Source: a virus (Duplodnaviria; Heunggongvirae; Uroviricota; Caudoviricetes). From it: a DNA stretch of 15,814 nt. The notes beneath the pieces are model-generated. The model was not told where the DNA came from. It saw nothing but the letters and a program-made list of their open reading frames with translations, and ran no database searches. A program made the translations under genes and the position numbers. Where the stretch lies: IMG/VR virus record IMGVR_UViG_2531839555_000011, positions 1 through 15,814 of that record. The stretch is one strand, 5' to 3'. Positions 943 through 15,814 of the stretch are shown here, in pieces. Numbering within the stretch: position 1 is the stretch's first letter; each line of letters opens with the position of its first letter.

Positions 943-1063
943 CCACCGATCCCCTGTATTTGGGTATCGCAAGTAAGCCCCAAAATCTGGGTGTTACTCT
1001 TACTACCCAAACTACGGGTAGTTTCCGTAGTTTCATAGTCGAGTTGCAGATCTGCAACTCGCC
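943..1063. repeat. 121-bp structured direct repeat, copy A
   Basis: Aligns by eye to 1377-1497 with about 7 mismatches. Contains several perfect or near-perfect hairpins: CGATCCCC..GGGTATCG, AAACTAC-GG-GTAGTTT, GAGTTGCA-GATC-TGCAACTC. The ORF-track ORFs over the two copies are on different strands, so conservation is at nucleotide level. Confidence 0.8.
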
Positions 1064-1193
1064 ATCAGTCAGGGAAATTTTGTAATTTCACGGAGGTTAA
1101 AATTCGAAGAGGCGGGCACTCCAAGAGATAAGAGACGGTAGGGATTTTGCTCCCCCTCCTGAATGCAATTTTTCGTATATATATACAAAACAG

Positions 1194-1211
1194 TGCGGGT
1201 TATGCGGGTTA
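1194..1211. repeat. Two tandem copies of TGCGGGTTA (reverse complement of TAACCCGCA)
   Basis: gTGCGGGTTATGCGGGTTAgcg read directly from the sequence; same 9-mer as the array at 1297-1348 in opposite orientation. Confidence 0.7.
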
Positions 1212-1296
1212 GCGAGTTATCTTCGCGTGCTAAGTATTTTTTATTATTTAATATCAATGCGTTGAAAAATAACATGTTCAAATGTTAGCCAAATCG

Positions 1297-1348
1297 TAAC
1301 CCGCAAGTCATTCAAAATAACCCGCAACCTCTCCCAAATAACCCGCAA
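1297..1348. repeat. Three direct copies of aaaTAACCCGCAA at 21-bp phasing (candidate protein-binding array)
   Basis: TAACCCGCAA at 1297-1306, 1318-1327 and 1339-1348, each preceded by an A-rich tract. The 21-bp period puts the sites on one face of the helix. Interpretation as integrase arm-type or excisionase sites is inference. Confidence 0.6.
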
Positions 1349-1376
1349 ACACATCAGGAAAGTGGGGCCAGTGATG

Positions 1377-1497
1377 CCACCGATCCCCTTTATTTGGGGA
1401 TCGCGAGTAAGCCCCAAAATCTGGGTGTTGCTCTTACTACCCAAACTACGGGTAGTTTCCGTAGTTTCATGGTCGAGTTGCAAATCTGCAACTCACC
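1377..1497. repeat. 121-bp structured direct repeat, copy B
   Basis: About 94% identical to 943-1063. Hairpins CGATCCCC-TTTATTT-GGGGATCG (perfect 8-bp stem), AAACTAC-GG-GTAGTTT and GAGTTGCA-AATC-TGCAACTC. Lies immediately right of the TAACCCGCAA array. Confidence 0.8.
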
Positions 1498-1833
1498 CAC
1501 CAGCCAACCCATTTTTGGGCCGTCGGGAATATCAACAAGTTAGCACAGAAATAACTCAGGCAGATACAAAACTCAATTTTGAGGTTTGCTTATTATTCAG
1601 TTGGTTAACATCCCTCAAAACTGAGGACTGTACCCAAAACTATTCTTATAGCTCCGGCCTCAGCCGTTGGCTTTTCCCGAAAATATCAGTCAGTTACGTT
1701 AACCGCTAATTTCTGCCTTTGGTGTGAATACTGTCGCTTTAACCTACGGTAATTGTTCTGCCTCGGTGCGTGTCACCGCCGTAACCGCGCCAGTAAAACC
1801 CACAGATTCGTGGTTTTCCTGAATATCAGGAAT

Positions 1834-2127
1834 CTACCGCCGCAACCGTTCCGGCTTCTTCCACTGGTAAGTATTTTTCGCGCTCTCCCTCCGTTGTTGA
1901 GAACGGCGACGGTATGCCAGCAACTCAAGGACTCTGGTTCGTATGTTGCGCATATCCACGCCGTTAAGCTCAATAACGTCACGGCGCATCACCTTAGCCA
2001 CCACACGCGCGTAATTTTCAGCGGTGACGGTATCCGGCTGCTTGGCCTCCGGTTTGCCTGTTGCCTGGCAGACTCCGGTAACGCAGCGAATTATTTTTAG
2101 TAGATCGGTTTCAGTCATTCTCGTCAT
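1834..2127 (-). CDS. Hypothetical basic 97-aa protein coupled to the large terminase
   Basis: ATG at 2127-2125 overlaps the terL stop (2126-2124) as ATGA. Arg/Lys-rich C-terminus. No family recognised. Confidence 0.45.
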   Translation of the reverse strand: MTRMTETDLLKIIRCVTGVCQATGKPEAKQPDTVTAENYARVVAKVMRRDVIELNGVDMRNIRTRVLELLAYRRRSQQRRESAKNTYQWKKPERLRR

Positions 2128-3785
2128 ACCCCATCAAATGCCGCTAGTCGCTCTTTCTGGCTGTCGCTCATATCAAATGCAAATTCCTCATGCTCAGCCT
2201 GGAATGTGCCAAACGCCATCAGCGCCGCAACGCTCGGGTCTATCTTGTTGGATGATTTTTTCTTGTTCGGCTTGATATTGGCGTTCGCGTCACTCTGCAT
2301 CACAACATTACTCATTGACCAGGCCAGCACCGGATCACCACGATGCACAATCACCTTCCGGTTAACAAAAACCTCGAACGATTTCGCCGCCGGACTGAAA
2401 CGAAGGTAGGTTTGAGGGAACGGCTCCACCTCAAAGCCTGCCCCCTGTAACTGCGTTCTCAGGTGCGTGGCGTTCCACGTATCAAAGCCCACCAGCCTGA
2501 TATTGAAATTCTCTGCATCCGCCATGATGTCATCACGGATACGGTCATAATCAATGCAGTCACCCGGTGTTGTGCGTATCCAGCCCGCCTTTGCCCACTG
2601 GCGATAGATGGCGCGGTTTTTATTGGCGGGGTTCTGTAGCTGAAATTCCGGCAGATAGTGACGAGAAACCAGCATAATGGTTTTACCAACCGGAAAGGCA
2701 TAGCACACGCTGGAGATGTCGCTTGTAGATGATAAATCAAGCCCCGCGTAACACTCCTGACCGTGTAAATCTTCCTCCGTGAACGTTCCGGCGCACTCAG
2801 CCCATGCACCGTTACCCATCCACGGCGTAGCCCCCTGACACCAGATATTGAATCGCTTGGTGAGCATTTCCACCCACTGCGACGGAATACCCCGCGCTTT
2901 CTGGATGGTTGAGGCCAGTTTTTCACGATCTACGGAAACATCGATATTGGGATTCGCCTTTATCCACATCGCCGGATCGTCAACCTCGCTTTCATCATCC
3001 AGCTCATAAATCAGAACGAACATGGATTCGTTCACCTCTTCACCATCCAGTATCTGGCAGCAATAGTCGTAGTGTTGTTTACAGGCTGAAACAACGTTGC
3101 TCCCCGATGTGGTGATGGCAAATAACAGCCCCTCCGGGCGTGCCCCCATTCCCAGTTCAAGCGCGGAATAAACCCCGTTGTCAGGGTGGAGGTGATATTC
3201 ATCCACAATGGCAAGACTCGGGTTTGTACCTTCAATGGTTGCTGCTTTTGCTGCCAGTGGCTTTAACAGACTGTTGGTTTTCGGGTGTATCACCTTGTGT
3301 GCCTGAATATTTACCCGCTTTCGTAACGGTCGGGATAAAAGGCACATCTGACGCGCATCATCAAACACGATCCGCGCCTGATCACGACTCACGGCGGCGG
3401 TGTAAATATCCTGCTGCCCGTTTTCCATAACCAGAAACCAGTTAGCCAGGATAGCGGCGACCGTGGATTTGGCATTTTTTCGCGGAACTTCAATGAATGC
3501 GCTGGTGTATTTGCGCCGTCCGGTGGCCTTAACCTTAAAGCCCAGGATGCACGCAAAGGCGAACTGCTGCCACGGCTCCAGCTCAATGGGGCTACCGCGC
3601 ATTGCGCCTTTTACGTGCGGACACACCCTGGAAAAGGCAATAAACCGCTCCACGACCTCCGGATCGAACGTGTAAAGGGGGTTTTCAAGGTCAGAAAAAT
3701 ACCGTTTAACGGCCTGTTTCAGTCGTTTACAGGCCGTAATTTTGCCGTTTTTTACGCCTTCTGCGTACTCATGCCAGGCGGTCAA
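2124..3785 (-). CDS. Terminase large subunit
   Basis: 553-aa ORF with N-terminal ATPase and C-terminal nuclease regions typical of phage large terminases. Apparent TTG start at 3785-3783 preceded by a GAGGA Shine-Dalgarno; overlaps the terS 3' end by 17 nt. Confidence 0.9.
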   Translation of the reverse strand: MTAWHEYAEGVKNGKITACKRLKQAVKRYFSDLENPLYTFDPEVVERFIAFSRVCPHVKGAMRGSPIELEPWQQFAFACILGFKVKATGRRKYTSAFIEVPRKNAKSTVAAILANWFLVMENGQQDIYTAAVSRDQARIVFDDARQMCLLSRPLRKRVNIQAHKVIHPKTNSLLKPLAAKAATIEGTNPSLAIVDEYHLHPDNGVYSALELGMGARPEGLLFAITTSGSNVVSACKQHYDYCCQILDGEEVNESMFVLIYELDDESEVDDPAMWIKANPNIDVSVDREKLASTIQKARGIPSQWVEMLTKRFNIWCQGATPWMGNGAWAECAGTFTEEDLHGQECYAGLDLSSTSDISSVCYAFPVGKTIMLVSRHYLPEFQLQNPANKNRAIYRQWAKAGWIRTTPGDCIDYDRIRDDIMADAENFNIRLVGFDTWNATHLRTQLQGAGFEVEPFPQTYLRFSPAAKSFEVFVNRKVIVHRGDPVLAWSMSNVVMQSDANANIKPNKKKSSNKIDPSVAALMAFGTFQAEHEEFAFDMSDSQKERLAAFDGV

Positions 3786-4125
3786 GCTCGTCCTCTTCCT
3801 CTGTTTCCGGTGGATTTCTGCGGCGGCTTACCGGGTCAAAACCCAGCAAAGAAGCCATTTTGATCATTATTCTTTCTGCGTCAGCCTTTGCGCTCAGGGC
3901 GGGGTTTCTGCTCTCGCTGCCCTGACTGTTAACAATGCTGAACCCGCGCGTCGCAAGGTCTTCGACGGCTTTGCGGTATATGGAGTAGTTAACACAATAC
4001 AGTTCCAGATTGCTCCAGTCGGCGGGGGTAAGGTCTTCCCGCCCGGAAAGCTGGCGCGATTTTTCCTTCCACTGCCTGACCGCGATTTCATCCAGGTAAG
4101 CGGGGGCTTTTGGTGGTCTTGCCAT
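3769..4125 (-). CDS. Terminase small subunit (P27-like)
   Basis: Start placed at the internal ATG (4125-4123) giving MARPPKAPAYLDEIA..., a typical P27-family small terminase N-terminus. The upstream part of the track ORF is a poly-Gly artefact of a G-run. Confidence 0.8.
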   Translation of the reverse strand: MARPPKAPAYLDEIAVRQWKEKSRQLSGREDLTPADWSNLELYCVNYSIYRKAVEDLATRGFSIVNSQGSESRNPALSAKADAERIMIKMASLLGFDPVSRRRNPPETEEEDELDRLA

Positions 4126-4412
4126 GTTTTTTTTCGCCCAATTATTTTCAAAAAAATTACCGTGCACAAAAATTTGAGGGGGCGGTCGGTGTCCGGCAGG
4201 GACGGTTTCGTCCTGAAAACCACCCCCACCCCCTCTGACGGCCTCACCAGCGATTGCGAAAACATTCCATGACCTCGCGGTCACGGTCGGTTAATCGCTT
4301 CGCTGTGGTGCGTTTTGTGCGCCCTGTCCTGTTGGCTTTGTGCTCTGTCTCCTGTGTCTTCCATGTGTCACGCTGCCTTATCAGTCCACGTATCAGCCTG
4401 GTTTGCTCCTGT
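4126..4412. other. Candidate cos / packaging-initiation region
   Basis: Non-coding gap between HNH and terS, the position cos occupies in HK97-type genomes. Contains a G/C-rich nested dyad, GAGGGGG (4176-4182) ... CCCCCTC (4229-4235) with an inner GGACG-gttt-CGTCC hairpin, next to A/T runs. Assignment is inference. Confidence 0.3.
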
Positions 4413-4853
4413 TCAGTCATCATCGCCATACATCCAGTCGTTACGGTGTGCCGCCCGTTCTTCCTGCTCGCGATACATGCCCGCTTTACGGTTTGCTTTC
4501 GTGGCTGGATCTTCCCGTGTCGTCTTACGGTTGTGGCACGTCTGGCACAATGCCTGGTGATTCCACTCAGGCCAGAAGAGAACATCACCGCCGCCATTGA
4601 TGGGAATGATGTGATCCACCACAAGAGCTGGCGTATAAATCCCCTTAGCCAGACAACGCACGCATAACGGGTTTTTGCTCAGGTACAGGGCGCGGTATTT
4701 GTCCCACTGTCGGGAATACCCGCGCGCGCGGCGGTGTCCCCGTCTGGCATCCTCTGCACGCCATGCAGCCCGCCTGTGCTCTTCACACTTGCCGGACTTC
4801 ACGCGCTTATTACAGCCAGGCTCAGTGCATCGCCTTAATGGTTGCCACGGCAT
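4413..4853 (-). CDS. HNH endonuclease (terminase-associated)
   Basis: 146 aa with Cys pairs and the H..N..H / CxxCHxxK pattern (VVDHIIPINGGGD...LCQTCHNRKT). Sits immediately upstream of terS as in HK97-like cos phages. Its ATG overlaps the connector stop by 1 nt. Confidence 0.9.
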   Translation of the reverse strand: MPWQPLRRCTEPGCNKRVKSGKCEEHRRAAWRAEDARRGHRRARGYSRQWDKYRALYLSKNPLCVRCLAKGIYTPALVVDHIIPINGGGDVLFWPEWNHQALCQTCHNRKTTREDPATKANRKAGMYREQEERAAHRNDWMYGDDD

Positions 4854-5155
4854 CAGTACACCCCTACGTCACGATAAACTGACCAGAGCGCAGAAATAGC
4901 CATAGGCAGTTCCGAGTGCTCCACTGGTGAAACCGCTTCCCGGTTCTCGTACAGGAAAGCGATGTACATCAGGCAACCAACACGCATTGCCGGGGTAAAT
5001 TCCAGCCCGTCTTCAAAACGTTTCCCGATATGCTTCTGGCAGGCTTCCAGCGCCGCATCGGTATACATTTTCAGAAGTTCGCCTTCACCGGATAAATCAT
5101 CATCAAGTCGAAGATGTGCCCTGACTTCATCAGGTGTAATTCTGGCTTCACTCAT
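4853..5155 (-). CDS. gp6-like head-tail connector / head completion protein
   Basis: Start at the internal ATG 5155-5153 with GGAGAA Shine-Dalgarno, 100 aa. Carries the family-typical LRLDDD...YENRE signature. Confidence 0.8.
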   Translation of the reverse strand: MSEARITPDEVRAHLRLDDDLSGEGELLKMYTDAALEACQKHIGKRFEDGLEFTPAMRVGCLMYIAFLYENREAVSPVEHSELPMAISALWSVYRDVGVY

Positions 5156-6362
5156 CTTTTCTCCCTTTAATTTCCACAGTCTGTTTCCATGCCTGGCTGA
5201 ACTCATCACCACCTTCACGCGGCGGCATACCCTCACGCTCACGGGCTTCGTTCGGATTCATGATCCCGTTCTTAATCCCTTTCTCATACGTGGCATAACG
5301 TTCGGTGGGTGTGGCGCGTAATAAATCGGCTGAATCAAACTCAACCAGATAACGGGTACCAGGTACGGGAGAAGCCACCAGCAAAGCGGCCTTGATTTGC
5401 TGTTCGAAGTTCGCCAGCCACGGGCGCATTGTCATGGTCAGAAACGCGCGGCTTGCCTCGCTGAAATTGCTGTAGGTGCTGTTGCTGTATTCCTGCAGAA
5501 AAATAGGCGATACGTTGAACATGCGGGCGATGTCTTCAATGGAGAAGCGACGGGAGGCCAGCCATTCCGCATCCTGGTTACTCATTCCCAGTTGCCTGTA
5601 ATCCATGCCCCCTTCAAGGATTGGCGTTTTTCCGGCATTTTTCGCCCCCTTGTAGCGTTCCAGAGCATCCAATGCCTGTTTACCTTTCACGCCGTCCAGC
5701 CATTCGCCTGACGTGATAATCCCTGCCGCCATCATGCCATCTTTCATAATGCTGGCTCCGTGGCGCTGTTGAGCAAGGCCAAGCCCAAGTGCCTCACGGC
5801 AAATCGTGACGGGGGAGCGCCCCAGAAAGCCATCATCCGAGGCATAGCGGAGATGCAGAACTTCTTCCTGTAAATACGTGCGCACCGTTCCTGTATAGGG
5901 TTCGGTGATGGTATAGCGGTATTTGTGTGCGCCTGTGCGTTCCGGTACAACACACCCCGGCGCATAAGGATGAAGTGATTTTGGCTGCCCGTCCTGCCCC
6001 CACTCAATAACCGCATAGGCGTTACCGTTCAGCAGGCAGTGACGCATCATTGTGCGTTTAAACTGGTAAGGTGTCTGGCACGAATTAGGCTGCTCATTCA
6101 GCAGAATATCTACCGGGTGACTGTCCAGCCATTCCCGCGCCTCCCTTCCCTTGTCATTACGTACCAGATACAGATAACACGGCATCGTGGCCACCGCCTC
6201 AGCGATGACAGAAACCGCATTCATCACTGCAGGCAATGATTCAGCCGTCCCGGCAGAAACATATTCTCCGGATCCGGTATTCGGTACGCCGGACAGCGCC
6301 AGAAAATCATCAATGGACAGGTTACGCTGCTCGCTTTTTTTACGACTAAAAGGCCACCACAT
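5148..6362 (-). CDS. Portal protein (HK97 family)
   Basis: Start placed at ATG 6362-6360 (MWWPFSRKK...), directly after the protease stop; the longer track ORF would overlap the protease by about 90 nt. About 404 aa with a portal-like central region. Confidence 0.9.
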   Translation of the reverse strand: MWWPFSRKKSEQRNLSIDDFLALSGVPNTGSGEYVSAGTAESLPAVMNAVSVIAEAVATMPCYLYLVRNDKGREAREWLDSHPVDILLNEQPNSCQTPYQFKRTMMRHCLLNGNAYAVIEWGQDGQPKSLHPYAPGCVVPERTGAHKYRYTITEPYTGTVRTYLQEEVLHLRYASDDGFLGRSPVTICREALGLGLAQQRHGASIMKDGMMAAGIITSGEWLDGVKGKQALDALERYKGAKNAGKTPILEGGMDYRQLGMSNQDAEWLASRRFSIEDIARMFNVSPIFLQEYSNSTYSNFSEASRAFLTMTMRPWLANFEQQIKAALLVASPVPGTRYLVEFDSADLLRATPTERYATYEKGIKNGIMNPNEAREREGMPPREGGDEFSQAWKQTVEIKGRKDE

Positions 6363-6363
6363 A

Positions 6364-6924
6364 TCACAACCCCGCCAGCTCAGACCAGCGATGACGATTA
6401 TTTCCTGTCGGGCATAATTCAGGGTGCTGTGCAAACAACGAACGGTGGGCAATCTCCACGCCAGATTCTGGATAAGCAGGCATCGACGTTATTGTGATTT
6501 CACGGAGTTCAGCGGCGGTTACGGTACGCAAATACGGTTTTTGCGCGATACTCCACTCCTCGCATAATGCGCGAAAACCAAAGCTCATTCCTGTAATGTC
6601 GCCACGCTCCACCAGCGTAAGCACATCTTTTCCAAGCTGGGTATCCGGCGGTGTCAGTTCAAAACGTAACCCGGTGTTATCCTCAGTCAGTACCAGAGTG
6701 CCGGATTTGGTGCGCCCCAGCAGTTGGGTATAGTCATGCTCATACAGGCAGCGCACATCATTACCCGCCGCCAGATAGTCAGCAAAAGCCCCCGGCGTGA
6801 ACTGTTCGCGGAATTCGTCCCAGATAATTTCTGAAAGGCTGTTCCAGCGAACGGCATACCCCACCAGCTTTTTATTGCTGGCGGTCAGTTCAGATGTGCG
6901 GATTTCAAAATCGGTGTTTTTCAT
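6364..6924 (-). CDS. Prohead maturation protease (HK97 family)
   Basis: 186 aa, GGAGT Shine-Dalgarno; sequence pattern (GYAVRWN...GAFADYL...LYEHD...GMSFGF...ITSMPAYP) typical of HK97-type prohead proteases. Confidence 0.9.
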   Translation of the reverse strand: MKNTDFEIRTSELTASNKKLVGYAVRWNSLSEIIWDEFREQFTPGAFADYLAAGNDVRCLYEHDYTQLLGRTKSGTLVLTEDNTGLRFELTPPDTQLGKDVLTLVERGDITGMSFGFRALCEEWSIAQKPYLRTVTAAELREITITSMPAYPESGVEIAHRSLFAQHPELCPTGNNRHRWSELAGL

Positions 6925-6930
6925 CGGTGT

Positions 6931-6966
6931 ACTCCATAAAGCTGAAAAAGGAGGCCGCAGCCTCCT
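6931..6966 (-). terminator. Possible partial terminator/attenuator between capsid and protease genes
   Basis: GC hairpin AGGAGGC-cgca-GCCTCCT (6949-6966) followed on the minus strand by TTTT, 13 nt after the capsid stop. Could tune capsid to protease/portal stoichiometry. Confidence 0.35.
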
Positions 6967-6978
6967 CCTTACTCATGA

Positions 6979-8148
6979 CTAGCCAGCTTTCATTTCCAGA
7001 ATTTTGATGGCGTTTGAATCCACCACACCACCGCCCAGATATTTATCCGTGTGGACCTTGTAGAATCCGGGTTCAGTAATGTTGTCCGGTCGGGTGCGAA
7101 TCCCTGTTACATGATCAACGATGAAATAACCACGACTGAAATCGCCAACCGCTAGCGGTGCTTTTCCTGCGCCGATGTCCGGCATGGACTCCAGGCAGTA
7201 AACAGGACGACCAAGCAACATATCCGGCGCACCTTCTTTAAGGCTGTCGCGCCAGATATAATCGCCGTTCTCATTTTTCAGCTTCTGTAGTGTCCCTGCC
7301 GTGCCCGAGTTCATCACCCAGACGGCATTTTTGCGGTATTTCGCTTTCAGCTTGTAGAGAATGTCGATCAGTTCGTCCGCTGTAATGGCGGTTCCACTTG
7401 CCGCTACTATTTTTTCAATGGTGCCAAAAGCGCGGGTTTTGTCACTGGTCGCCGCACGGGTGTAAGCCATGAAGCCTTTCGGCTTGCCGTTACCGTCGCC
7501 ATTAACAAAATCATCCTCTTCGGTGCTGGCGAACGTGTCGGCAATTTCGGAGGATAACCAGCCCAGAATATCCACCTCTGAAAAATCCAGGATTTCCTGC
7601 GTGGTTTTCGGGTAGGCGTAGATCGGATTCAGCTTGATGGTTACGCGTTCAATTTTCGGGGTGTTGGTTTCACTGCGTGCGCTGCCTTCTGTGCCTCGTC
7701 CTACAGTTGCGCCGCCAGTGGAAACCAGTTTCTGAAACTCATTTGATTTTGCGGTCTTCACGGTCGCGATCACGCGCATAACACTGTCATCCTGTAGCTG
7801 GCGCATGACTTCGCGATCAAGCTCAGGAATTACGGTATATCCGCCATCCCTGCCGCTGTCAGTGCTGGTGGACAGTGATCGCACATCTCCGGTTACGATG
7901 TAGTTACGCAATTCATCAGATGATAATTTCTGGATGCCCGTTCCTGGCTTGCTGCGTTCTTCATCAGCCACAGACTCGAGGCGGGAAATTTCTGTGTCGA
8001 GGGCATCAGCTTTTGCACGCAGTTCATCAAACTGTTTGCCTTCTTCAGCGTTCAGACTACGGTTTTCACTGTCGGCTTTTTCCAGCAGGGATCGCATCTG
8101 GTTTTTCAGGGCGTTTTTTTGCTGGCGGAGTTCGATTAATTTCTTCAT
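6979..8148 (-). CDS. Major capsid protein (HK97 fold) with N-terminal scaffolding-like coiled coil
   Basis: 389 aa. N-terminal about 100 aa is charged and coiled-coil-like (delta-domain-like); C-terminal core has HK97 MCP-like motifs (AVGDFSRGY). Confidence 0.9.
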   Translation of the reverse strand: MKKLIELRQQKNALKNQMRSLLEKADSENRSLNAEEGKQFDELRAKADALDTEISRLESVADEERSKPGTGIQKLSSDELRNYIVTGDVRSLSTSTDSGRDGGYTVIPELDREVMRQLQDDSVMRVIATVKTAKSNEFQKLVSTGGATVGRGTEGSARSETNTPKIERVTIKLNPIYAYPKTTQEILDFSEVDILGWLSSEIADTFASTEEDDFVNGDGNGKPKGFMAYTRAATSDKTRAFGTIEKIVAASGTAITADELIDILYKLKAKYRKNAVWVMNSGTAGTLQKLKNENGDYIWRDSLKEGAPDMLLGRPVYCLESMPDIGAGKAPLAVGDFSRGYFIVDHVTGIRTRPDNITEPGFYKVHTDKYLGGGVVDSNAIKILEMKAG

Positions 8149-8375
8149 GAAGGTTTTCTCGTATTGGTTAAGATTCAGGACGTGAAACCAACACGGAGGG
8201 AGCGCCGCCCGACACTCTCGGCATCTCGCAGATCAACCCGGCATCGCGCAGGGGGTCAGGCGGCATTGTGGCGGCTCACGTCTGAGTGCCACACGCCAAC
8301 ATATACATAAAAATCAGTATGTAAATATCAGCCAGAATCACTGAACAGCCAGAAACAACCACGAACAAATAATTT

Positions 8376-8410
8376 ACAAAACCTGAAAAGAAAACCCGGA
8401 AAAATCCGGG
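8376..8410 (-). terminator. Rho-independent terminator ending the replication operon
   Basis: On the minus strand, CCCGG-atttttt-CCGGG followed by TTTTCTTTTCAGGTTTTG, 12 nt after the stop of the 82-aa gene. Confidence 0.6.
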
Positions 8411-8421
8411 CCTTTATCGCT

Positions 8422-8670
8422 TTACTGTTTCATGGAATCCCGCATTCTGCGTCTTATTTTCCACAGATATTCGATCATCGCTTCCACCTGCTCACGGTTG
8501 GTTGCGAAAATTTCCCCGGTCAGTGAGCTGCGCAGAAAATCATGATGATCCACAACAAATAACGCATCGGAAGAAAGCAGACGGCGATATTTTTTTGCTG
8601 TCGTGGTTTCCAGATCATCAATACCATGAAACTTTTTATGTTGCTGAACTTCTTCAAATGTCACTGGCAT
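8422..8670 (-). CDS. Hypothetical 82-aa protein
   Basis: ATG at 8670-8668 with a strong AGGGGG Shine-Dalgarno at 5-nt spacing; followed by a terminator. No family recognised. Confidence 0.6.
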   Translation of the reverse strand: MPVTFEEVQQHKKFHGIDDLETTTAKKYRRLLSSDALFVVDHHDFLRSSLTGEIFATNREQVEAMIEYLWKIRRRMRDSMKQ

Positions 8671-8687
8671 GTATCCCCCTGTTATCG

Positions 8688-9110
8688 CTAAAAGGGTATG
8701 TTATCCCCATATGGATCATCATTCCCCGCCTGTTGCTTAGCCCTATTTAGAGCGTCAGTAGCCTGGCCCTGCTGGCCTTTTTTGCCACCAGGTCGCGCCG
8801 TTCTGGCACTGATTACGCTGTCTGCGATAACCTGCCAGCCCTGCCGCGTTTCCCCGTTCTGTCCGGTCCACTGGCTCACCTGCATGTTACCCGCCACGCT
8901 CAGGAGTTCACCCTTGCGGTGCTTTGCCAGTGCTTCGGCCTGTCTGCCAAACGCCAGGACGGATAACCACATCGTCGCCGTTCCGTCATCTGCCTGGCTG
9001 CACGGCAGGGTGACCGCCATGCTCGCCATAGCCATTTGTGTGCCCTTGCTGGTGGTCTTTAACTGTGGGTCAGCCACCAGCCGCCCGTAAGCCGCTATCT
9101 GTGCTGTCAT
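8688..9110 (-). CDS. Single-stranded DNA-binding protein-like
   Basis: 140 aa, OB-fold-like N-terminus, Gly/Gln-rich linker and an acidic C-terminal tip DDPYGDNIPF resembling the SSB ...DDDIPF tail. GGAGAG Shine-Dalgarno; ATGA overlap with the upstream 81-aa gene. Confidence 0.75.
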   Translation of the reverse strand: MTAQIAAYGRLVADPQLKTTSKGTQMAMASMAVTLPCSQADDGTATMWLSVLAFGRQAEALAKHRKGELLSVAGNMQVSQWTGQNGETRQGWQVIADSVISARTARPGGKKGQQGQATDALNRAKQQAGNDDPYGDNIPF

Positions 9111-9352
9111 GCTGTCTGCTCTCCGGTTTTAACGTTGATGGTTGTCACCTGTTCCGCTTCGGCAATCTCCCGTTCTGTCAGCGTGGCAAAGTTTGCAGCT
9201 GCCGTTGTCATGAATGAGCTAATCAGTTCGGGATGTGCTTTCGCATATCCTTCCCCGGCGTTGCGGTCGATGATTTTTATCGACACCCTTAACCAGTGTT
9301 CCGTCAAATCAAGGGCGTGCGATTGTGATTTTTTTGTGTGCTTCGCTGTCAT
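9107..9352 (-). CDS. Hypothetical 81-aa protein
   Basis: ORF translationally coupled (ATGA) to the SSB-like gene; weak Shine-Dalgarno. No family recognised. Confidence 0.5.
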   Translation of the reverse strand: MTAKHTKKSQSHALDLTEHWLRVSIKIIDRNAGEGYAKAHPELISSFMTTAAANFATLTEREIAEAEQVTTINVKTGEQTA

Positions 9353-9402
9353 AGGCTTTATCTCACAGCAGTAAATTAAAATTTTTGCGTTTTAACCCTT
9401 CA

Positions 9403-9626
9403 CCTGTTCACCTTTTGATATTTTATCTTTTAATTCATAATGTTAAGGGGTGAACAGTTTCACAAAAACTATTCACCAACTGTTCACCACTGTTCACCCT
9501 TGAAGCTCAATAAACAATCAAAAAGGTGAACAGTGAATAGTTTGGTGAACAGTTCATAAATAACTGTTCACCCTATAATATACTGATACAAAAGATATTT
9601 ATGACAGGGTGAACAGTGGTGAACAG
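9403..9626. repeat. Iteron-type replication origin (9 copies of GGTGAACAG/CTGTTCACC)
   Basis: Exact 9-mers at 9403, 9449, 9480, 9490, 9525, 9544, 9564, 9608 and 9618 in both orientations plus partial copies, with an AT-rich tract at 9574-9606, immediately 3' of the primase-helicase gene. Confidence 0.8.
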
Positions 9627-9639
9627 TTATTCCATAAGT

Positions 9640-11457
9640 TTAATTTTTGCTATCGTCATTAGTGACCGATACACATGATGGCATCCAGTCTTCTGATTCC
9701 TCCGTCAGTGTCACGTTTGAACGCAAACCGTGCTTCGTTTTCCGTTTCATATACTCCCTGCCATATTCCGCCATTGCCCCCGGCATATCTTTACCGAAGC
9801 GCGTCAGTGTTACAGGTTTACCAAACCCATGTGCCTTCATATAAGCCAGATAGGCATGATAGAGATACCTGCGCGGGCTGAATGGCACAATTTCAGCATT
9901 ACCCACTAACAGGCCATCACACATTACCGACGCCATGAGATAGCCGCAGAAGTCCACCAGCGAATCCCCCTCTCGCTTTATCGCCAGTGCTTCTTCAGAT
10001 TTCTGCTGCTCATATAACAGGCGTCTGGCTTCGTCCTGGTCAGCAAACCGTGTAAGCAGATGGCGAATCACTACCGCCAGCTCACCTTCTATTTTTTCCG
10101 CCAGCATTGGATCACGTTCGTTCTCCGGTACAACTTCCGAAAAATTGAATATCACCCGACGACGTGAGATCCCCCCGCTGCGGTCACTGAATGACATGGC
10201 GTTATTGTTAACCGCCAGCACTACTGCCGGAATACGCGTTGAGTAGGGGGCTTTGTGTTTCGGGTCAATTGCCACCTTGTCACCGCCTGTAATAGCCTTA
10301 ATCCCTGCCCCATCACCAGCGTAGCGGGTCATATCCGGCATGATAATCAGCGAAAAGCCAACCACTAACGCGCGTTCCCTTGCATCTTCCAGCGCCTTCA
10401 TGCTTGCCGATACTGTGTTGGCCTTACCCGCCAGCATGGTGCAAATCTCCGCCATCACGCTTTTACCACTTCCCCCTGGACCTGTTACCTCAATGAATAA
10501 CTGCCAGTCGTACCGGTTCGCCAGCACCATGAATAATGCAGCCAGTACGCGATCCGCCTTGCGGTCATTCTCAGCCACCGAACGGCGTAACCACTTCCAG
10601 AAATTCGGCGCATGTGTTGCCAGCGTTTCCCCCTCTGCTGGTGGGCTGAAAGGTAATTCACTGGCAATTAACAACCAGTCGTTTTTGTTATGCTCCCGAA
10701 AATTACCTGTTCTGGTATCAAATACCCCGTTACTGAATCCAATCAGGTTACGGGCTGTATTCCCCATTACAGGCAAACTTAACTTCATGGTATCGACCGC
10801 CGATTTAATGGCGTTCTGCGAATAGCTGATCTCCGCATCAATGAAAATCTGCGCCATAGCTCGCTGTAATTCTTTATCCTGTACTGGCTCCCATACAACG
10901 CCGTTGTAATGGTGAACAGTGTCAGAGTCGGCATGAATCGCCAGTTCACCGCCATAATGTGCCAGGAGAACTTCGCCGCGTTGACTTGCTCCCATCTGGT
11001 TAAGCGCCAGTGATGAAGCGTTATCGTCTTTTACCCGCTCTTTTTTCTTTACAGGCAGTTCAACTACCTTTTTCTTTTCCGCCAGCTCTGCCCGTTCACG
11101 TTCCAGATATTCGCGCCAGTTCTCCCGTTTCTGGCTGTGCATTCCTTCAGAGTAATAATCAGCATCCCTGACACCTGCCGCTGCCAGTTTCTGCCCGATG
11201 GTATTAACAAGCCCCGGACGCAATAACCCCGCCTGATAGAGACGCACGCGATAGCGTCCGTCCGGTACGATTTGCAGGTTGTCCAGTTCGGCAAGTTGTT
11301 GCTCTCCAAGCCAGACAGGAGGCACGTTATCGCCAGCCAGTCGCCCGTCCTGTTCCTGCCACTGTTTCGCATGTGCCCACGCATCACTACCCGCAAAAAT
11401 GATGACTTCCGTCATTTTGTCACGCGGCTGGTGTTTTAAATTTGGCGCTTTTTTCAT
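9640..11457 (-). CDS. Replication initiator: primase / SF3 helicase
   Basis: Start at ATG 11457-11455 (MKKAPNLK...) with GGAGAG Shine-Dalgarno; Walker A GPGGSGKS and Walker B-like LIIMPD; about 605 aa. Domain architecture consistent with P4/PICI primase-helicases. Confidence 0.85.
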   Translation of the reverse strand: MKKAPNLKHQPRDKMTEVIIFAGSDAWAHAKQWQEQDGRLAGDNVPPVWLGEQQLAELDNLQIVPDGRYRVRLYQAGLLRPGLVNTIGQKLAAAGVRDADYYSEGMHSQKRENWREYLERERAELAEKKKVVELPVKKKERVKDDNASSLALNQMGASQRGEVLLAHYGGELAIHADSDTVHHYNGVVWEPVQDKELQRAMAQIFIDAEISYSQNAIKSAVDTMKLSLPVMGNTARNLIGFSNGVFDTRTGNFREHNKNDWLLIASELPFSPPAEGETLATHAPNFWKWLRRSVAENDRKADRVLAALFMVLANRYDWQLFIEVTGPGGSGKSVMAEICTMLAGKANTVSASMKALEDARERALVVGFSLIIMPDMTRYAGDGAGIKAITGGDKVAIDPKHKAPYSTRIPAVVLAVNNNAMSFSDRSGGISRRRVIFNFSEVVPENERDPMLAEKIEGELAVVIRHLLTRFADQDEARRLLYEQQKSEEALAIKREGDSLVDFCGYLMASVMCDGLLVGNAEIVPFSPRRYLYHAYLAYMKAHGFGKPVTLTRFGKDMPGAMAEYGREYMKRKTKHGLRSNVTLTEESEDWMPSCVSVTNDDSKN

Positions 11458-11753
11458 TTCTGCTCTCTCCACGCGGCAATCATGTTTTTCAGTTCCTGTA
11501 GTTTTTTATCAACATCCATACATGACACATGGTTATTTCTGGAAAGCGGGATTTCCCGCCGGAATCTGCAAATAAAGATCTCCACGTTCAGCGAACTATG
11601 AAATGAATAGCCATCACGAATAAAATAAACACGGTCAAACATCAGCTCTTTTACCGTTACTCTGTTACCGTTCTTATCCAGATAAATAGCGCCGGGGATA
11701 ATTTTTGGGTGTGCATAACCGCTGGCAGTCAAGCCAGATAAATATGTTCTCAT
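11454..11753 (-). CDS. Hypothetical 99-aa protein coupled to the primase
   Basis: ATGA overlap with the primase start. About 38% GC, lower than the element backbone. No family recognised. Confidence 0.55.
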   Translation of the reverse strand: MRTYLSGLTASGYAHPKIIPGAIYLDKNGNRVTVKELMFDRVYFIRDGYSFHSSLNVEIFICRFRREIPLSRNNHVSCMDVDKKLQELKNMIAAWREQK

Positions 11754-11759
11754 GATTAT

Positions 11760-12080
11760 TTATCCCCGATTTGAATCAGTATTCGCTTTCTTTATGGCAT
11801 TTAATGCATCTGTGGCATTATCAATGGTGCACCGTAACGAAATATCAAACTGCCCAAGCATTGCCAGTAACAAGCCAATATTCCCCATGTCAATGCGCAT
11901 AGCCTTTTCGTCATATTCCTCATTTTCTGACGCATACCACATCAGGTTACCAATTGACGCAACAGCCATTGATATATTGTCAGTAGCCGCATCCGCAGCA
12001 GAATAAACCTTTTTAGCAATATCATGCTCACAGTTAAAATGCGGATTAATCAGGTACTGGTAATTGGTCATGTCAGGCAT
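11760..12080 (-). CDS. Hypothetical 106-aa acidic protein
   Basis: Strong AGGGGGG Shine-Dalgarno before ATG 12080-12078; AT-rich coding sequence. No family recognised. Confidence 0.55.
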   Translation of the reverse strand: MPDMTNYQYLINPHFNCEHDIAKKVYSAADAATDNISMAVASIGNLMWYASENEEYDEKAMRIDMGNIGLLLAMLGQFDISLRCTIDNATDALNAIKKANTDSNRG

Positions 12081-12276
12081 GGCACCCCCCCTGACGAATA
12101 CGGGCGGCGAATACCATCACGCAGCCAGCCGGGGATTGCTGGCGTGCTTCCTGTTCGCTGGTGGCCTCAATGGTAATCACGCGCGGTTGTGCCGTGCTCA
12201 GGGCGATAAAACGCCAGATGTATTTATTCAGGTTGTGCGAGTCCCGCCCTTGCGGGTGTGTGGTATGATTTAACAT
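12073..12276 (-). CDS. Possible 67-aa first gene of the leftward operon
   Basis: Internal ATG 12276-12274 of a longer spurious ORF, preceded by GAGGT at 5-nt spacing; overlaps the start of the 106-aa gene by 8 nt. Composition unusual, so low confidence. Confidence 0.4.
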   Translation of the reverse strand: MLNHTTHPQGRDSHNLNKYIWRFIALSTAQPRVITIEATSEQEARQQSPAGCVMVFAARIRQGGCHA

Positions 12277-12312
12277 AGCTACCTCGATACTTCTGCTATC
12301 GTTGGTGGTTAG

Positions 12313-12356
12313 ACGCCCCGTTACTGCTCCTACAGTGCGGGGCGTTGTTTTTTGTG
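12313..12356 (+). terminator. Hairpin plus T-tract in plus orientation (leader structure or terminator)
   Basis: ACGCCCCG..ACTG..CAGT..CGGGGCGT followed by TGTTTTTTGTG. It lies in the 5' leader of the leftward operon and upstream of the Arc-like gene; function ambiguous. Confidence 0.35.
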
Positions 12357-12370
12357 TAATGGTAAGTACA

Positions 12371-12419
12371 ATGGTAATTACCATGTAACTATAGTAATTA
12401 AGGGTAATTACCATGTCAA
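12371..12419. promoter_or_regulatory. Palindromic operators overlapping divergent promoters
   Basis: ATGGTAATTACCAT (12371-12384) and GGTAATTACCAT (12403-12414) 30 bp apart, plus degenerate half-sites. On the minus strand TTGACA (12419-12414), a 17-nt spacer and TACTAT (12396-12391) form a sigma70-like promoter with the second operator inside the spacer. Confidence 0.5.
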
Positions 12420-12586
12420 CACCATTAGAGAAACGATCGCCACCATACCAAATGCGACTACCAGAAGAATTTAGAGCGCAACTTGAGGAGGCAGCCAAGG
12501 CAGACGGCGACACCTCATTAGCTACTTGGATTAAACGAATACTCCGCAAAGAATTACAACAGCGCGGTATCGAGCCCAAAGGCTGA
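12413..12586 (+). CDS. Arc/Mnt-like ribbon-helix-helix repressor (57 aa)
   Basis: Translated by hand: MSTPLEKRSPPYQMRLPEEFRAQLEEAAKADGDTSLATWIKRILRKELQQRGIEPKG. The P-x-Y/F-x-M/L-R-L/W-P...IxxRIxxxL pattern matches the P22 Arc beta-strand plus two helices. Too short for the 60-aa ORF track; only plus-strand gene in the element. Confidence 0.7.
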   Translation: MSTPLEKRSPPYQMRLPEEFRAQLEEAAKADGDTSLATWIKRILRKELQQRGIEPKG

Positions 12587-12680
12587 CAGCCAACCAGCAA
12601 GCCAGCACACTGATCACATTGCCCACCAGCCGCAAATGTGGCATTGTTGGTGATGCGTTCAAGTTTAGTGTGTATCCATT

Positions 12681-12709
12681 GGCGACCGCCCCCGGTCGCC
12701 TTTGTTTTA
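12681..12709 (+). terminator. Rho-independent terminator (possibly bidirectional)
   Basis: Perfect 8-bp stem GGCGACCG-cccc-CGGTCGCC followed by TTTGTTTTAT; lies between the converging Arc-like and ORF6N genes. Confidence 0.7.
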
Positions 12710-13390
12710 TGCGCGATCATGTGCCGCCTCCCACTCATATTTATCGAAATCAATCTGCCCCATCGCATCTACCAGCCGTACCGCCGGACGCAGAACTTTG
12801 AGTTCCTTCTTGCGGAGATTCATTCCATTACTGCCCTGTGAGCCATGAAACTGCTTAGAATGCTTGTCCGCACGAGTCACGGCGTTTTGCGCATCAGTAA
12901 CCGGCATGGCGATCAGTTCTTCGAGCGACGGCAGATCCACATGATGGAAAGTGACAAACTCCGGGCAACGGAAATAAGCTTTCACGAGCTGGCGCTGTAC
13001 CTGCCAGGCCAAATCATCGTTAAACGGTTTGGTCAGCAGCAGATAGCCTGATTCCGTAATCAGTGTTACGCGGCCACGTATCGGACTGTTCATTTTTTTG
13101 CCAGGGCGTTTAATGCCCCTGTCTAAATATCCAGCCCCTCCCCATTCGACCTCTGACGCGCCGACAATAAAAAAGTCCTCACCATCAATGAAGCGAGTGC
13201 GATTACGCTGAAAAGTCTTTTTAGCCGTGTCTTTAGGTCGCTGGTGCGCGGTATCGATCATTGCGAACGTCACCACGCGTTGCCCGTGAAATTCGACGGC
13301 AGGAAACTGTTTAAGCTGCACGCTAATATCGCTTTTACTGGCAACAGGGTGAGCGAATCCCTGCCCGTTAAGGGCATTAATATTTTTCAT
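12707..13390 (-). CDS. ORF6N-domain antirepressor-like protein
   Basis: 227 aa. N-terminal GQRVVTF..ID..HQRP...FQRNRTRFIDGEDFF ... TESGYLLLTKPFNDDLAWQVQRQLVKAYFR matches the ORF6N signature of phage antirepressors as I recall it. 20 nt downstream of the AlpA-like gene. Confidence 0.75.
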   Translation of the reverse strand: MKNINALNGQGFAHPVASKSDISVQLKQFPAVEFHGQRVVTFAMIDTAHQRPKDTAKKTFQRNRTRFIDGEDFFIVGASEVEWGGAGYLDRGIKRPGKKMNSPIRGRVTLITESGYLLLTKPFNDDLAWQVQRQLVKAYFRCPEFVTFHHVDLPSLEELIAMPVTDAQNAVTRADKHSKQFHGSQGSNGMNLRKKELKVLRPAVRLVDAMGQIDFDKYEWEAAHDRA

Positions 13391-13410
13391 CTCTGATTAC
13401 CTGTGGTTAA

Positions 13411-13695
13411 TTAAGCAGATTTGCGGCTGTACGGGTTATTGACGTTTTCCACGGCAGGCGGATTACGAACCCACCAGAGCACATCCGAAAGAAGCCAGGC
13501 ACAGCTGTTGCGGCCAAAGTGACAGCGCGGCGGGAAGCGCCCCTGCTGTTCCATCTTCCAGCGGCTCGAACGAGAAAGACTGGTGATCTCGCTGCATTCA
13601 TCTTCGCGGATTCGGCGATCGAACTTGAAGCCGTACTCCTCCAGAATGGTGCGGCGTTGTTCAGGATTTGGCGGGGTAAAGGTGATAATTTGCAT
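13411..13695 (-). CDS. alpA: AlpA-family regulator/excisionase-like protein
   Basis: Start at internal ATG 13695-13693 with GGAGG Shine-Dalgarno. C-terminal SLSRSSRWKMEQQGRFPPRCHFGRNSCAWLLSDVLWWV matches the AlpA helix-turn-helix pattern (LSRSTIYR..G.FP.P...G.R...W...E...W). Confidence 0.8.
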   Translation of the reverse strand: MQIITFTPPNPEQRRTILEEYGFKFDRRIREDECSEITSLSRSSRWKMEQQGRFPPRCHFGRNSCAWLLSDVLWWVRNPPAVENVNNPYSRKSA

Positions 13696-13790
13696 GTTGC
13701 CTCCACTGTTTCTAAGTTTGTGGGGGCTATTGTTATCCTTGTGATTGGATGTCACACTAGACGAAAATTAAATTGTTTTGACCACCAAGA

Positions 13791-14594
13791 TTAAGGAAGA
13801 ATTTTTCTATCCTGAAGTTCTGACCTGATTTTTTCTATAGAAGAAATTGAGAAGATTTTTTCTATATTTGGCTTTACGGTTTGCGCTATCTGCGTTGAGT
13901 CATACTCTCCGTTCGGAAACACAGCCACAGCAAGCACGCCATTGGTGACGCATGCCCCGCGAGATTTAGCCCAGATCATCAAATCAACCACGGGGAAAAG
14001 TGAATAATCGTATACCTTTTTTTTAATTGTTTCCCATGACTGGTATGTTTTTTCCTTTTCTTTTATTTTTAATTCCTCACGCCAATTCTTGAGGTTTTTT
14101 TCAAACACATCAATCAATAAATCATCCGGGCGTGACAAATCAACTTTAATAAAAAGGTCATTTGGTTCCAAAAATGAGCTAACACTTGTAAATGAATGGT
14201 AAACTAAATTTTCAGCCGTTCCCGTAAAATTATTTTCCATATAATTATCTACAGCATCTTTCATATAAATAAAGTCTTCAATGGACATTGGTCGTAACGC
14301 AACCCCACCAGACAAAACACCTTCTCTTTTAATAGGAAGTTTAAACGCATCATAGAAGTACGTAGCTCTATCAATCGCATTAGCGACCGCGCCATTTCCA
14401 AGTATCCTTCCTACTTCATCGTTATTTGTAAGAGGTTCATTATAAAAAGACCCGCCATATCGATAGAAGTTTTCAAGCATGTCATATCTAACAACCAACT
14501 GATAAAATAAGTCTTTATCTGACATGCCAATAAATTGAGTGTAGTTATCTAAATCAAACCATGTTGGCAAATCTTTTTTGTGGCTAATTCTCAT
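13791..14594 (-). CDS. AT-rich 267-aa cargo protein of unknown function, coupled to int
   Basis: 804-nt ORF; 60-nt samples give about 25-45% GC against about 50% in int. ATG 14594-14592 overlaps the int stop as ATGA. No recognisable catalytic or DNA-binding motifs. Confidence 0.7.
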   Translation of the reverse strand: MRISHKKDLPTWFDLDNYTQFIGMSDKDLFYQLVVRYDMLENFYRYGGSFYNEPLTNNDEVGRILGNGAVANAIDRATYFYDAFKLPIKREGVLSGGVALRPMSIEDFIYMKDAVDNYMENNFTGTAENLVYHSFTSVSSFLEPNDLFIKVDLSRPDDLLIDVFEKNLKNWREELKIKEKEKTYQSWETIKKKVYDYSLFPVVDLMIWAKSRGACVTNGVLAVAVFPNGEYDSTQIAQTVKPNIEKIFSISSIEKIRSELQDRKILP

Positions 14595-15814
14595 TTTTCA
14601 CCAGCCTTTAAAATAACGATATTAGAGTGATTACCCGCGAGAAGTTCTAAGCGGTCATACCACTTGTTCAGCGCGTCCAGCTTCTCCGGTAAGTAAAGAC
14701 TACGGTTATAAATCGCCATAACTCCCGGCAAGGCATGGCCCAACAGCAGCTCGACTATATGCGGTGCTATACCCATATTGTTTAGCCCCGTAGAAAACGT
14801 CCGACGCAGATCGTGAAGTGTCCACGGCTCGTTATGGTGAAAATCTTTAAAAAGCCTGCGCCCTTTCAATGATACAGCCTGACGGGTACGATCTTCGCCC
14901 AGTAACAAACCTGTTTTCCCTGTCTCGCGCTTTAACTCTTCCAGCCACGGGCGTATAGCTTCAGGTATCGACCTCACGATTTTCTCTCGGGTTTTGCTAT
15001 GCTCTTTCGGTACAGTCCAAATCCACGATGTAAAATCCCACTCTGACCATCGAGAAAGGCGAACTTCCATCGTTCGCGCACCAAAAAGCACCAGCATTTT
15101 GAGCAGACGTGAATAATACGGCTGCTGATCATCGCTATCTGTACAGCGCCACACATCAGCCAGCTCGCTATCTGACAATACGCGATCACGTTGACCAGAT
15201 GGCTGGCCTACATCCTGAATGGTGAGAAAGGCCAGAGCATCACTGGCAGCATAACGGCGAACCTTGCAGAAACGTAACGCCTGTTTAGAAATCTGGAACA
15301 TGCGGCCGGCGGTCATGGGTTTAGTCTGGTTTATTTCGTCAAAACAGGCCACCCAATGGCGGGTTTCACATCTGGTGATCGGATAACGACCAAGGCGCGG
15401 GTAAATATGCTTGCGTAGCTGCGCCCTCACCAACGCCTCATCACTGCGCTTTCTCCTGGCGTAATTCACCAACCAATATTCCAGGGCGTCTTTAACCGTT
15501 ACAGGCTTAAGCGTTTCTTCTGTGCTCAGCTCAATCTCAGTTTTCGGATCAAGCCCACCAGCCAGCCACTGGCGACACTGTTCCCGCTTTTCTCGCGCAA
15601 GTTTTAGCGGCATATCAGGGTAACGGCCAAGCGTTAAACGTTCGAGTTTGCTACCCCTTCCTCCCAACCGGTATGAAAATACCCAGCTAACGTTACCTTG
15701 CTTCGAGACCTTAACGCTTAGCCCCTCACCATCGGCAATCATGATCGGCGCTTCACGCTCAGAACCCAGCAATGCTTTTAGCTTTTTGTCGCTCAGTTTG
15801 TTTGTGCCAGCCAT
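14591..15814 (-). CDS. int: Tyrosine integrase, P4-like family
   Basis: 407 aa starting at the window edge (ATG 15814-15812). N-terminal arm-binding-like region (GEGLSVKVSKQGNVSWVFSYRLGG...), C-terminal catalytic residues (HDLRRT, LLGHA, a Tyr near the C-terminus). Confidence 0.93.
   Translation of the reverse strand: MAGTNKLSDKKLKALLGSEREAPIMIADGEGLSVKVSKQGNVSWVFSYRLGGRGSKLERLTLGRYPDMPLKLAREKREQCRQWLAGGLDPKTEIELSTEETLKPVTVKDALEYWLVNYARRKRSDEALVRAQLRKHIYPRLGRYPITRCETRHWVACFDEINQTKPMTAGRMFQISKQALRFCKVRRYAASDALAFLTIQDVGQPSGQRDRVLSDSELADVWRCTDSDDQQPYYSRLLKMLVLFGARTMEVRLSRWSEWDFTSWIWTVPKEHSKTREKIVRSIPEAIRPWLEELKRETGKTGLLLGEDRTRQAVSLKGRRLFKDFHHNEPWTLHDLRRTFSTGLNNMGIAPHIVELLLGHALPGVMAIYNRSLYLPEKLDALNKWYDRLELLAGNHSNIVILKAGEK

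Follow-up and report, generated by a model that had tools for sequence, protein, structure and literature searches.

Phage-inducible chromosomal islands of the capsid-forming type (cf-PICIs) are defined by the pairing of a PICI-type integrase, alpA, and primase module with a complete head and packaging module, and by the lack of tail or lysis genes (10.1101/2022.09.08.507074). In Proteobacteria, their late genes follow the order capsid–protease–portal–head connectors–hnh–terS–terL (10.1101/2022.09.08.507074). An origin in HK97-type packaging systems has been stated for cf-PICI modules, and cf-PICIs have been published in 13% of Enterobacteriaceae genomes. The prototype is EcCIEDL933 of Escherichia coli O157:H7 EDL933 (10.1101/2022.09.08.507074; 10.1101/2025.02.11.637232), whose capsid has T=4 symmetry, whereas that of HK97 has T=7. 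An adaptor and connector pair sets tail specificity and is present in all three studied islands (He et al.); EcCIEDL933, EcCIGN02175, and KpCIDSM30104 all carry both neck components. Here, we examine the IMG/VR record IMGVR_UViG_2531839555_000011, positions 1 to 15,814, the whole of which (15,814 nucleotides) is referred to as the window. Judged from its sequence, this DNA very probably holds an integrated E. coli cf-PICI of approximately 15.5 kb, inserted at hpt by its own tyrosine integrase. The cf-PICI family, its mechanism, its abundance, and the hpt insertion site have already been published, and nothing in this locus is new in kind; the island is an ordinary addition to the known family that deviates mainly by one absent neck gene. 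The sole departure from current cf-PICI descriptions is that a recurrent lineage under selection lacks the head-closure gene.

The window is E. coli chromosome, some part of it being matched by all but one of 5426 complete E. coli genomes (5425). A sequence-only reading of this DNA had listed a set of genes running from int to terL beside hpt; all of them were confirmed on the minus strand by strong Pfam matches, and every open reading frame (ORF) of the island is intact. The PICI-type integrase, AlpA regulator, and primase are accompanied by an origin with nine iterons, as that reading had proposed: the 9-mer GGTGAACAG occurs nine times within 9404–9626, compared with 0.07 copies expected in the whole window. 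To this module are joined the island's own capsid, prohead protease, and portal genes (assigned with Pfam) and its own HNH, TerS, and TerL genes, the products of which are 84–94% identical to those of EcCIEDL933. No ORF of the window matches a tail, baseplate, holin, or lysin family (Pfam, PHROG), in agreement with the claim that such genes are missing. The description of a single leftward array holds for nearly all of the genes, except for an Arc/YlcI-like gene at 12413–12586 that lies on the plus strand. Gene content, late-gene order, attachment (att) ends, and homology to EcCIEDL933 thus all fit the cf-PICI class to which the reading had assigned the region. The late operon, in its direction of transcription, comprises the following features:

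6979–8148, minus strand: HK97-fold major capsid protein (Pfam, 2e-71; 63% identical to EcCIEDL933)
6364–6924, minus strand: S78 prohead serine protease (Pfam, 7e-46; 62% identical to EcCIEDL933)
5148–6362, minus strand: portal (Pfam, 2e-92; 81% identical to EcCIEDL933)
4853–5155, minus strand: Ad1 head-tail adaptor, a gp6-like connector (Phage_connect_1, 8e-5; PHROG 'head-tail adaptor Ad1', 2e-28; 56% identical to EcCIEDL933)
4413–4853, minus strand: HNH endonuclease of HNH-dependent cos packaging (Pfam, 9e-10; 84% identical to EcCIEDL933)
4244–4429, minus strand: small conserved ORF of ~61–62 aa between hnh and terS, phrog_3173 (77% identical to EcCIEDL933)
4126–4243, minus strand: candidate cos region, a G-rich 118-bp spacer upstream of terS, conserved with EcCIEDL933
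3769–4125, minus strand: terS, P27/Terminase_4 family (Terminase_4, 5e-23; 89% identical to EcCIEDL933)
2124–3785, minus strand: terL (TerL_ATPase, 4e-26; TerL_nuclease, 3e-51; 94% identical to EcCIEDL933)
1834–2127, minus strand: conserved post-terL gene of 94–97 aa, phrog_1561 (PHROG, 1.3e-45; 65% identical to the EcCIEDL933 homologue)
890–915, minus strand: terminator-like hairpin of 11 pairs, eight of them G-C, with a weak T-tract, which may mark the end of the late operon

For comparison with a described cf-PICI, which the sequence-only reading had recommended, EcCIEDL933 was retrieved from the EDL933 chromosome (L006), and its proteins were compared with the window. The two islands are of similar size (15.4–15.5 kb) and share the order int–alpA–…–DUF4222–primase–ori–SSB–capsid–protease–portal–connector–HNH–small ORF–terS–terL–small ORF. 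Nine late proteins are 56–94% identical between them, and conservation extends to the spacer upstream of terS. The capsid protein matches, over its full length, a 385-residue chain named 'Major head protein' in PDB 9gyi (E = 7e-154); the chain agrees in length and in alignment ranges with the major capsid protein of EcCIEDL933 and probably is that protein. The post-terL gene, the start of which overlaps the terL stop as ATGA, encodes a protein with no Pfam or PADLOC match. Judged by gene numbering, the ORF at 4244–4429 probably corresponds to 'gene 1792' of EcCIEDL933, the loss of which strongly cuts transfer (10.1101/2022.09.08.507074). The differences lie mostly elsewhere. The EcCIEDL933 integrase is 47% identical to that of the island and uses an att site next to roxA rather than hpt; its primase is a DUF927 protein, whereas the C-terminal part of the island's primase belongs to D5_N/DUF5906/Pox_D5; and the iterons differ, as does the terminal non-coding DNA. 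The island has additional DUF6387, ORF6N, and Arc-like genes, whereas a PerC-like gene occurs in EcCIEDL933 only. Finally, EcCIEDL933 has a PF05521 head-closure gene and the island has none.

The boundaries of the island are given by its left junction within the window and by near-identical relatives on the right. Three features are needed here:

1–537, minus strand: hpt (Pfam Pribosyltran, 1.6e-26; annotated hpt in L001 and L002), the chromosomal target, outside the island
519–538, no strand: attL, CTTCTACAATATGTTTCATA, from the overlap of BLAST matches to the K-12 empty site, with attR read in L001
14591–15814, minus strand: tyrosine integrase of 407 aa (Arm-DNA-bind_3, Phage_integrase; 47% identical to EcCIEDL933)

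In E. coli K-12, hpt and gcd adjoin with no island between them, and alignment of this empty site with the window and L001 breaks it into two parts that overlap by 23 bp. The att sites form a 20-bp direct repeat with one mismatch, CTTCTACA[A/G]TATGTTTCATA, which spans the hpt start codon and lies at 519–538 of the window (attL) and at 23280–23299 of L001 (attR), 172 bp beyond the int start. In two complete E. coli genomes (L001 and L002) that carry the same island at 99–99.9% identity, gcd lies within 400 bp of int, and these near-identical islands stop ~170 bp past int. From these relatives, the sequence past the window is predicted to run for ~170 bp, then through attR (CTTCTACAGTATGTTTCATA) and the native hpt upstream region to gcd, so that the island would reach ~190 bp beyond the window. 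The condition under which the sequence-only reading would have been overturned, namely a larger complete prophage, is contradicted by this succession of int, attR, and gcd and by the empty hpt–gcd site of K-12. Its estimate of roughly 14 kb, counted from 1834, was too short: the left end is at 538, and the island begins at 539 and includes ~1.3 kb of non-coding DNA (539–1833) at the terL end, giving ~15.5 kb. This length falls within the range of cf-PICIs with defined att ends (~10–18 kb), the right end being taken from relatives.

That reading had also supposed that the integration locus might be uncharacterised, which is not the case. A published survey with TIGER mapped 49 'hpt PICIs' of 15–16 kb, for example Eco10616.15.hpt (PMC10111431). 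Their attL/attR flanks and the identity block TATGAAACATA are identical to those of the island, which they also match in size and in an integrase clade related to the HE-PICI integrases. These elements, likened here by att flanks, size, and integrase, were filed as regular PICIs, and the main text of that study makes no mention of capsid-forming PICIs (PMC10111431). In its supplementary att alignment, Eco10616.15.hpt shows the identity block TATGAAACATA and flanks identical to window positions 539–590; the attL of the window holds this 11-bp block together with the hpt start codon, the first hpt codons lying inside the att repeat. The hpt junction is present in 12 of the 5426 complete genomes. 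ARAGORN found no tRNA or tmRNA in the window, so the att site is not tRNA-linked.

Several points weigh against the assignment of the region as a cf-PICI. Sequence in the window extends no further than the int start codon, and the right end of the island is placed from L001 and L002; the predicted cos position derives from the ends of a single deposited relative. The neck is the main deviation. Between portal and HNH, EcCIEDL933 carries two neck genes, a head-closure protein (Hc1; 113 aa, PF05521 at 7e-23) and the Ad1 connector, whereas the Ad1/gp6-like gene is the sole neck gene of the island, and the head-closure gene is absent from all six frames of the window. A tblastn search of the window with the EcCIEDL933 head-closure protein returned nothing at 1e-3, and the best phmmer hit in the six frames had E = 1.3. 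There is no room for such a gene in the window, where the stop of portal and the start of Ad1 overlap. The small ORFs of the island (97, 106, 82, 81, and 62 aa) were considered as replacements and rejected, since none matches PF05521 even at E <= 10; moreover, those of 97, 82, and 62 aa have homologues in EcCIEDL933, which also possesses Hc1, and thus are not substitutes for it. According to Alqurainy et al. (10.1101/2022.09.08.507074), every gene of the EcCIEDL933 packaging module except 'gene 1792' is indispensable for transfer. Because Hc1 is individually essential there, stable DNA-filled capsids of the island's own making are not assured. The SatelliteFinder tool recognises cf-PICIs by 11 core components, two of which are the neck genes. 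Tails and holins are forbidden, and an element that has 10 of the 11 passes as 'Type B', the commonest class; by this rule, the absence of Hc1 is compatible with cf-PICI membership.

The same gap could be taken to mean that the island is a cf-PICI by descent only, which ceased to transfer on losing Hc1 and is now vertically inherited or decaying. This interpretation draws on the requirement for both connectors among the packaging genes of EcCIEDL933 (10.1101/2022.09.08.507074), on the lack of a PF05521 gene in any frame, and on the rarity of the hpt-integrated form (12 of 5426 genomes). However, the portal–Ad1 junction without Hc1 recurs in 143 of the 5426 complete genomes, compared with 355 that have an EcCIEDL933-type head-closure gene, and in IMG/VR contigs, one of them from a metagenome. 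The module also recurs beside another integrase at a second att site, namely in the thiM/rcnR island of E. coli SMS-3-5 and many other strains, so that at least two att sites are involved. In that island, the late and replication modules are 96–98% identical in DNA to the window, the head-closure gene is likewise lacking, and a DUF6387 gene likewise follows int; its integrase, alpA, and att site are different, an extra plus-strand gene precedes the capsid gene, and the terminal non-coding region is shorter. Between the window and SMS-3-5, the nine late genes show 84 synonymous changes against 26 non-synonymous ones (pN/pS 0.09), and all late ORFs are intact. This ratio and the recurrence of the module indicate that it is still under purifying selection; furthermore, Ad1 has diverged within the closure-less lineage, with variants at 90%. 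An island that no longer moves is therefore considered rather unlikely.

Two other origins can be weighed against the same data. A defective HK97-like prophage stripped of its tail and lysis modules would account for the families of the capsid, protease, portal, gp6-type Ad1 adaptor, HNH, TerS, and TerL genes, all of which are shared with the HK97 head module. The gene order of HK97 is permuted relative to the island, however, where the late genes follow the cf-PICI order and not the phage order, and a gp7-type head closure, tail, and lysis genes are lacking from the island. The precise att ends enclose only ~15.5 kb and no tail or lysis module, the inward-facing int, AlpA, Bro-type gene, and primase with a downstream origin constitute a PICI signature, and the architecture is conserved across hundreds of genomes. 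Of 50,697 deposited phage records, only 4 match the island in DNA, and the best match is to a cf-PICI-like record of 16.5 kb. This origin is very improbable. The second origin, as a helper-capsid-remodelling element of the P4-like or classical PICI type, has in its favour the genes that these families share with the island: int and alpA, an Icd-like gene, and a primase of the D5 type. No ORF matches the psu, sid, or delta families of P4-like elements in Pfam or PHROGs, a P2-type cos not having been specifically searched for, and possession of its own portal, adaptor, and terL is 'forbidden' in the SatelliteFinder PICI model and diagnostic for cf-PICIs; such an identity is exceedingly remote. 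A cf-PICI, its self-sufficiency in capsid closure not being assured, remains the preferred assignment.

In the closure-less lineage, the closing function may either be supplied by a helper phage or be dispensable. It is conceivable, and we propose it only tentatively, that a sizeable E. coli sub-lineage of cf-PICIs, this island among its members, has dispensed with its own head-closure protein while remaining mobile and under purifying selection. If so, these satellites would take the neck-closing protein of the helper in addition to its tail, or seal the portal in some other way; tail compatibility would be tied to the helper's own Hc1; and stable, free 'tail-less' DNA-filled capsids would be less expected in this lineage. 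The island offers a natural test case, in which one member of an essential, tail-setting pair is missing from an apparently healthy and recurrent lineage. Knowing what closes the portal would refine the model of stable-capsid formation and tail choice in cf-PICIs. As for the remaining neck protein, homologues of Ad1 among deposited phage records are confined to four small records (1.6–16.5 kb), at least some of which are clearly cf-PICI-like, and one 106.5-kb Klebsiella phage record.

By analogy with EcCIEDL933, a helper phage would switch on alpA, and the island would then excise and replicate from its GGTGAACAG-iteron origin by means of its own primase-helicase and SSB. A single late operon would yield a small HK97-fold capsid (T=4 in EcCIEDL933) from the capsid protein, S78 protease, portal, and Ad1 adaptor. 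The HNH, TerS, and TerL proteins of the island would package unit-length island DNA by a cos mechanism, probably from the 118-bp spacer; the Hc1 function, lacking in the island, would come from the helper or be dispensable, and infectivity would require the tail of the helper phage. The cos site probably lies within the 4126–4243 spacer, with the end predicted near 4210, given that the linear ends of the deposited vB_KppS-Ant genome fall at the homologous GGTTTTCAGGAC. This genome (LR881103.1, 'Escherichia phage vB_KppS-Ant', L130; 16.5 kb) was deposited as a phage from an induced prophage and displays a cf-PICI gene set. It includes int, primase, the genes from capsid to terL, and a head-closure gene, one gene being labelled tape measure in the deposited annotation, and its linear ends lie in the spacer upstream of terS.

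Upstream of the late operon, the replication, regulation, and integration genes comprise the following, in order of position:

8422–8670, minus strand: hypothetical protein of 82 aa, phrog_1957 (43% identical to an EcCIEDL933 ORF)
8688–9110, minus strand: SSB (Pfam, 3e-16)
9107–9352, minus strand: hypothetical protein of 81 aa, phrog_1231 (PHROG; compared with EcCIEDL933)
9400–9630, no strand: replication origin with nine copies of GGTGAACAG in both orientations, downstream of the primase gene
9640–11457, minus strand: primase-helicase (D5_N, DUF5906, Pox_D5)
11454–11753, minus strand: DUF4222 protein (Pfam)
11760–12080, minus strand: hypothetical protein of 106 aa, phrog_15327 (PHROG)
12073–12276, minus strand: Icd-like small protein (RefSeq annotation of a homologue; 48% identical to the EcCIEDL933 Icd-like protein)
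12413–12586, plus strand: Arc/YlcI-YnfO-like DNA-binding protein of 57 aa, the sole plus-strand gene, in a region variable between islands
12707–13390, minus strand: ORF6N protein of the Bro/KilA-N network, anti-repressor-like (Pfam, PHROG)
13411–13695, minus strand: AlpA-family regulator (Pfam, 8e-10; 47% identical to EcCIEDL933)
13791–14594, minus strand: DUF6387 protein (Pfam), with a 4-bp overlap with the int stop

Only the N-terminal 142 aa of the primase-helicase resemble the EcCIEDL933 DUF927 protein. The variable stretch at 12277–12706 holds the Arc-like gene in the window, a YlcI/YnfO gene in L001, and an HNH pseudogene with another small ORF in L002; a 231-aa ORF at 12073–12768 in the mechanically generated list is probably spurious. 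The ORF6N gene fits, by analogy, the 'Bro zone' of Gram-negative PICIs. The DUF6387 gene, which has a GC content of 0.34, encodes a protein with a predicted all-helical fold, for which neither a significant PDB fold match nor a defence-family match was obtained. Serratia PICI-like elements (L127–L129) display the same int–DUF6387–alpA–Bro arrangement at ~30% identity; DUF6387 therefore looks like a partner of the integrase clade rather than cargo. PADLOC reported no defence system among the ten small and accessory proteins scanned, and no known immune cargo was seen among them. The integrase start codon ends at the last base of the window.

After integration, island DNA stands in place of all native sequence upstream of the hpt start codon. 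Codon 4 of the hpt copy next to the island is ATT (Ile), whereas it is ACT (Thr) in K-12; the displaced hpt copy beside int keeps ACT, and ~5400 island-free genomes show one mismatch to the hpt 5' end of the window. Two further features lie just inside attL:

602–623, plus strand: doubled motif AGTGATACAC-CG-AGTGATATAC, a candidate integrase arm-type site
626–654, minus strand: sigma-70-like promoter TTCGCA-17-AATAAT with TG, from a consensus scan, ~90 bp upstream of the hpt start codon

Within 31 kb of L001, the pattern AGTGATAYAC-N2-AGTGATAYAC occurs in two places only, both of them attP arms, the other copy (L001 23130–23151) adjoining int. The two copies share one orientation in a reconstructed attP and lie at -149 and +84 relative to the centre of the core. 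HE-PICIs carry a doubled arm motif (PMC10111431), and the motif seen here is likely an integrase arm site that resembles the HE-PICI arm architecture with a different sequence. The 626–654 site, which faces hpt, is a candidate replacement promoter for this gene, the number of promoter-like sites in the scanned region being not above chance. In replacing the hpt promoter region and altering the fourth codon, the insertion represents a small case of a satellite rewiring a housekeeping gene.

The terminal non-coding DNA (539–1833) contains a repeated structured element and a mosaic segment:

943–1069, minus strand: structured non-coding element, copy A, directly after the last late-operon ORF
1377–1542, minus strand: structured non-coding element, copy B, sharing with copy A a 121-nt direct repeat that is 94% identical
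1070–1834, no strand: 765-bp mosaic non-coding segment, in place of which the closest islands (L001 and L002) have 40 bp
1176–1348, no strand: partial second origin-like module with AACCCGCA iterons, three direct and two inverted, around an AT-rich stretch

The structured element has a minimum free energy of -59.4 kcal/mol in copy A (z = -6.2 on the minus strand and -5.4 on the plus strand) and a closed multi-hairpin fold with three copies of AAACTAC and a perfect 20-nt palindrome, GAGTTGCARATCTGCAACTC. At gathering thresholds, Rfam gave no match anywhere in the window, nor did it give one in 500–2000 at E <= 1. In IMG/VR loci of this island lineage, 24 distinct copies share a nearly invariant core of ~105 nt; they are too alike for covariation, with one compensatory-looking change seen. 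The element could be a 3' untranslated region RNA or a set of protein-binding sites. Larger prophages carry the palindrome GAGTTGCARATCTGCAACTC as well, within KilA-N domain genes (L014 8161–8958 and many IMG/VR loci), where it encodes ELQICNS; as no similarity extends past the 20 nt, a link to these genes was rejected as probably coincidental. The halves of the 1070–1834 segment occur separately in other E. coli islands, and parts of it match 871 of the 5426 genomes. Its origin-like module (1176–1348) shares 79% identity with the right half of the origin region used by the DUF927 primase of EcCIEDL933, whereas the primase of the island belongs to another family and has a different iteron origin (9400–9630). 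In EcCIEDL933 itself, the last late gene is followed by a non-coding stretch of ~850 bp (L006 15762–16600), which consists of repeated hairpin-containing modules (GGCGCGGTAACT…) and, apart from short hairpin motifs, is unrelated to the terminal DNA of the window.

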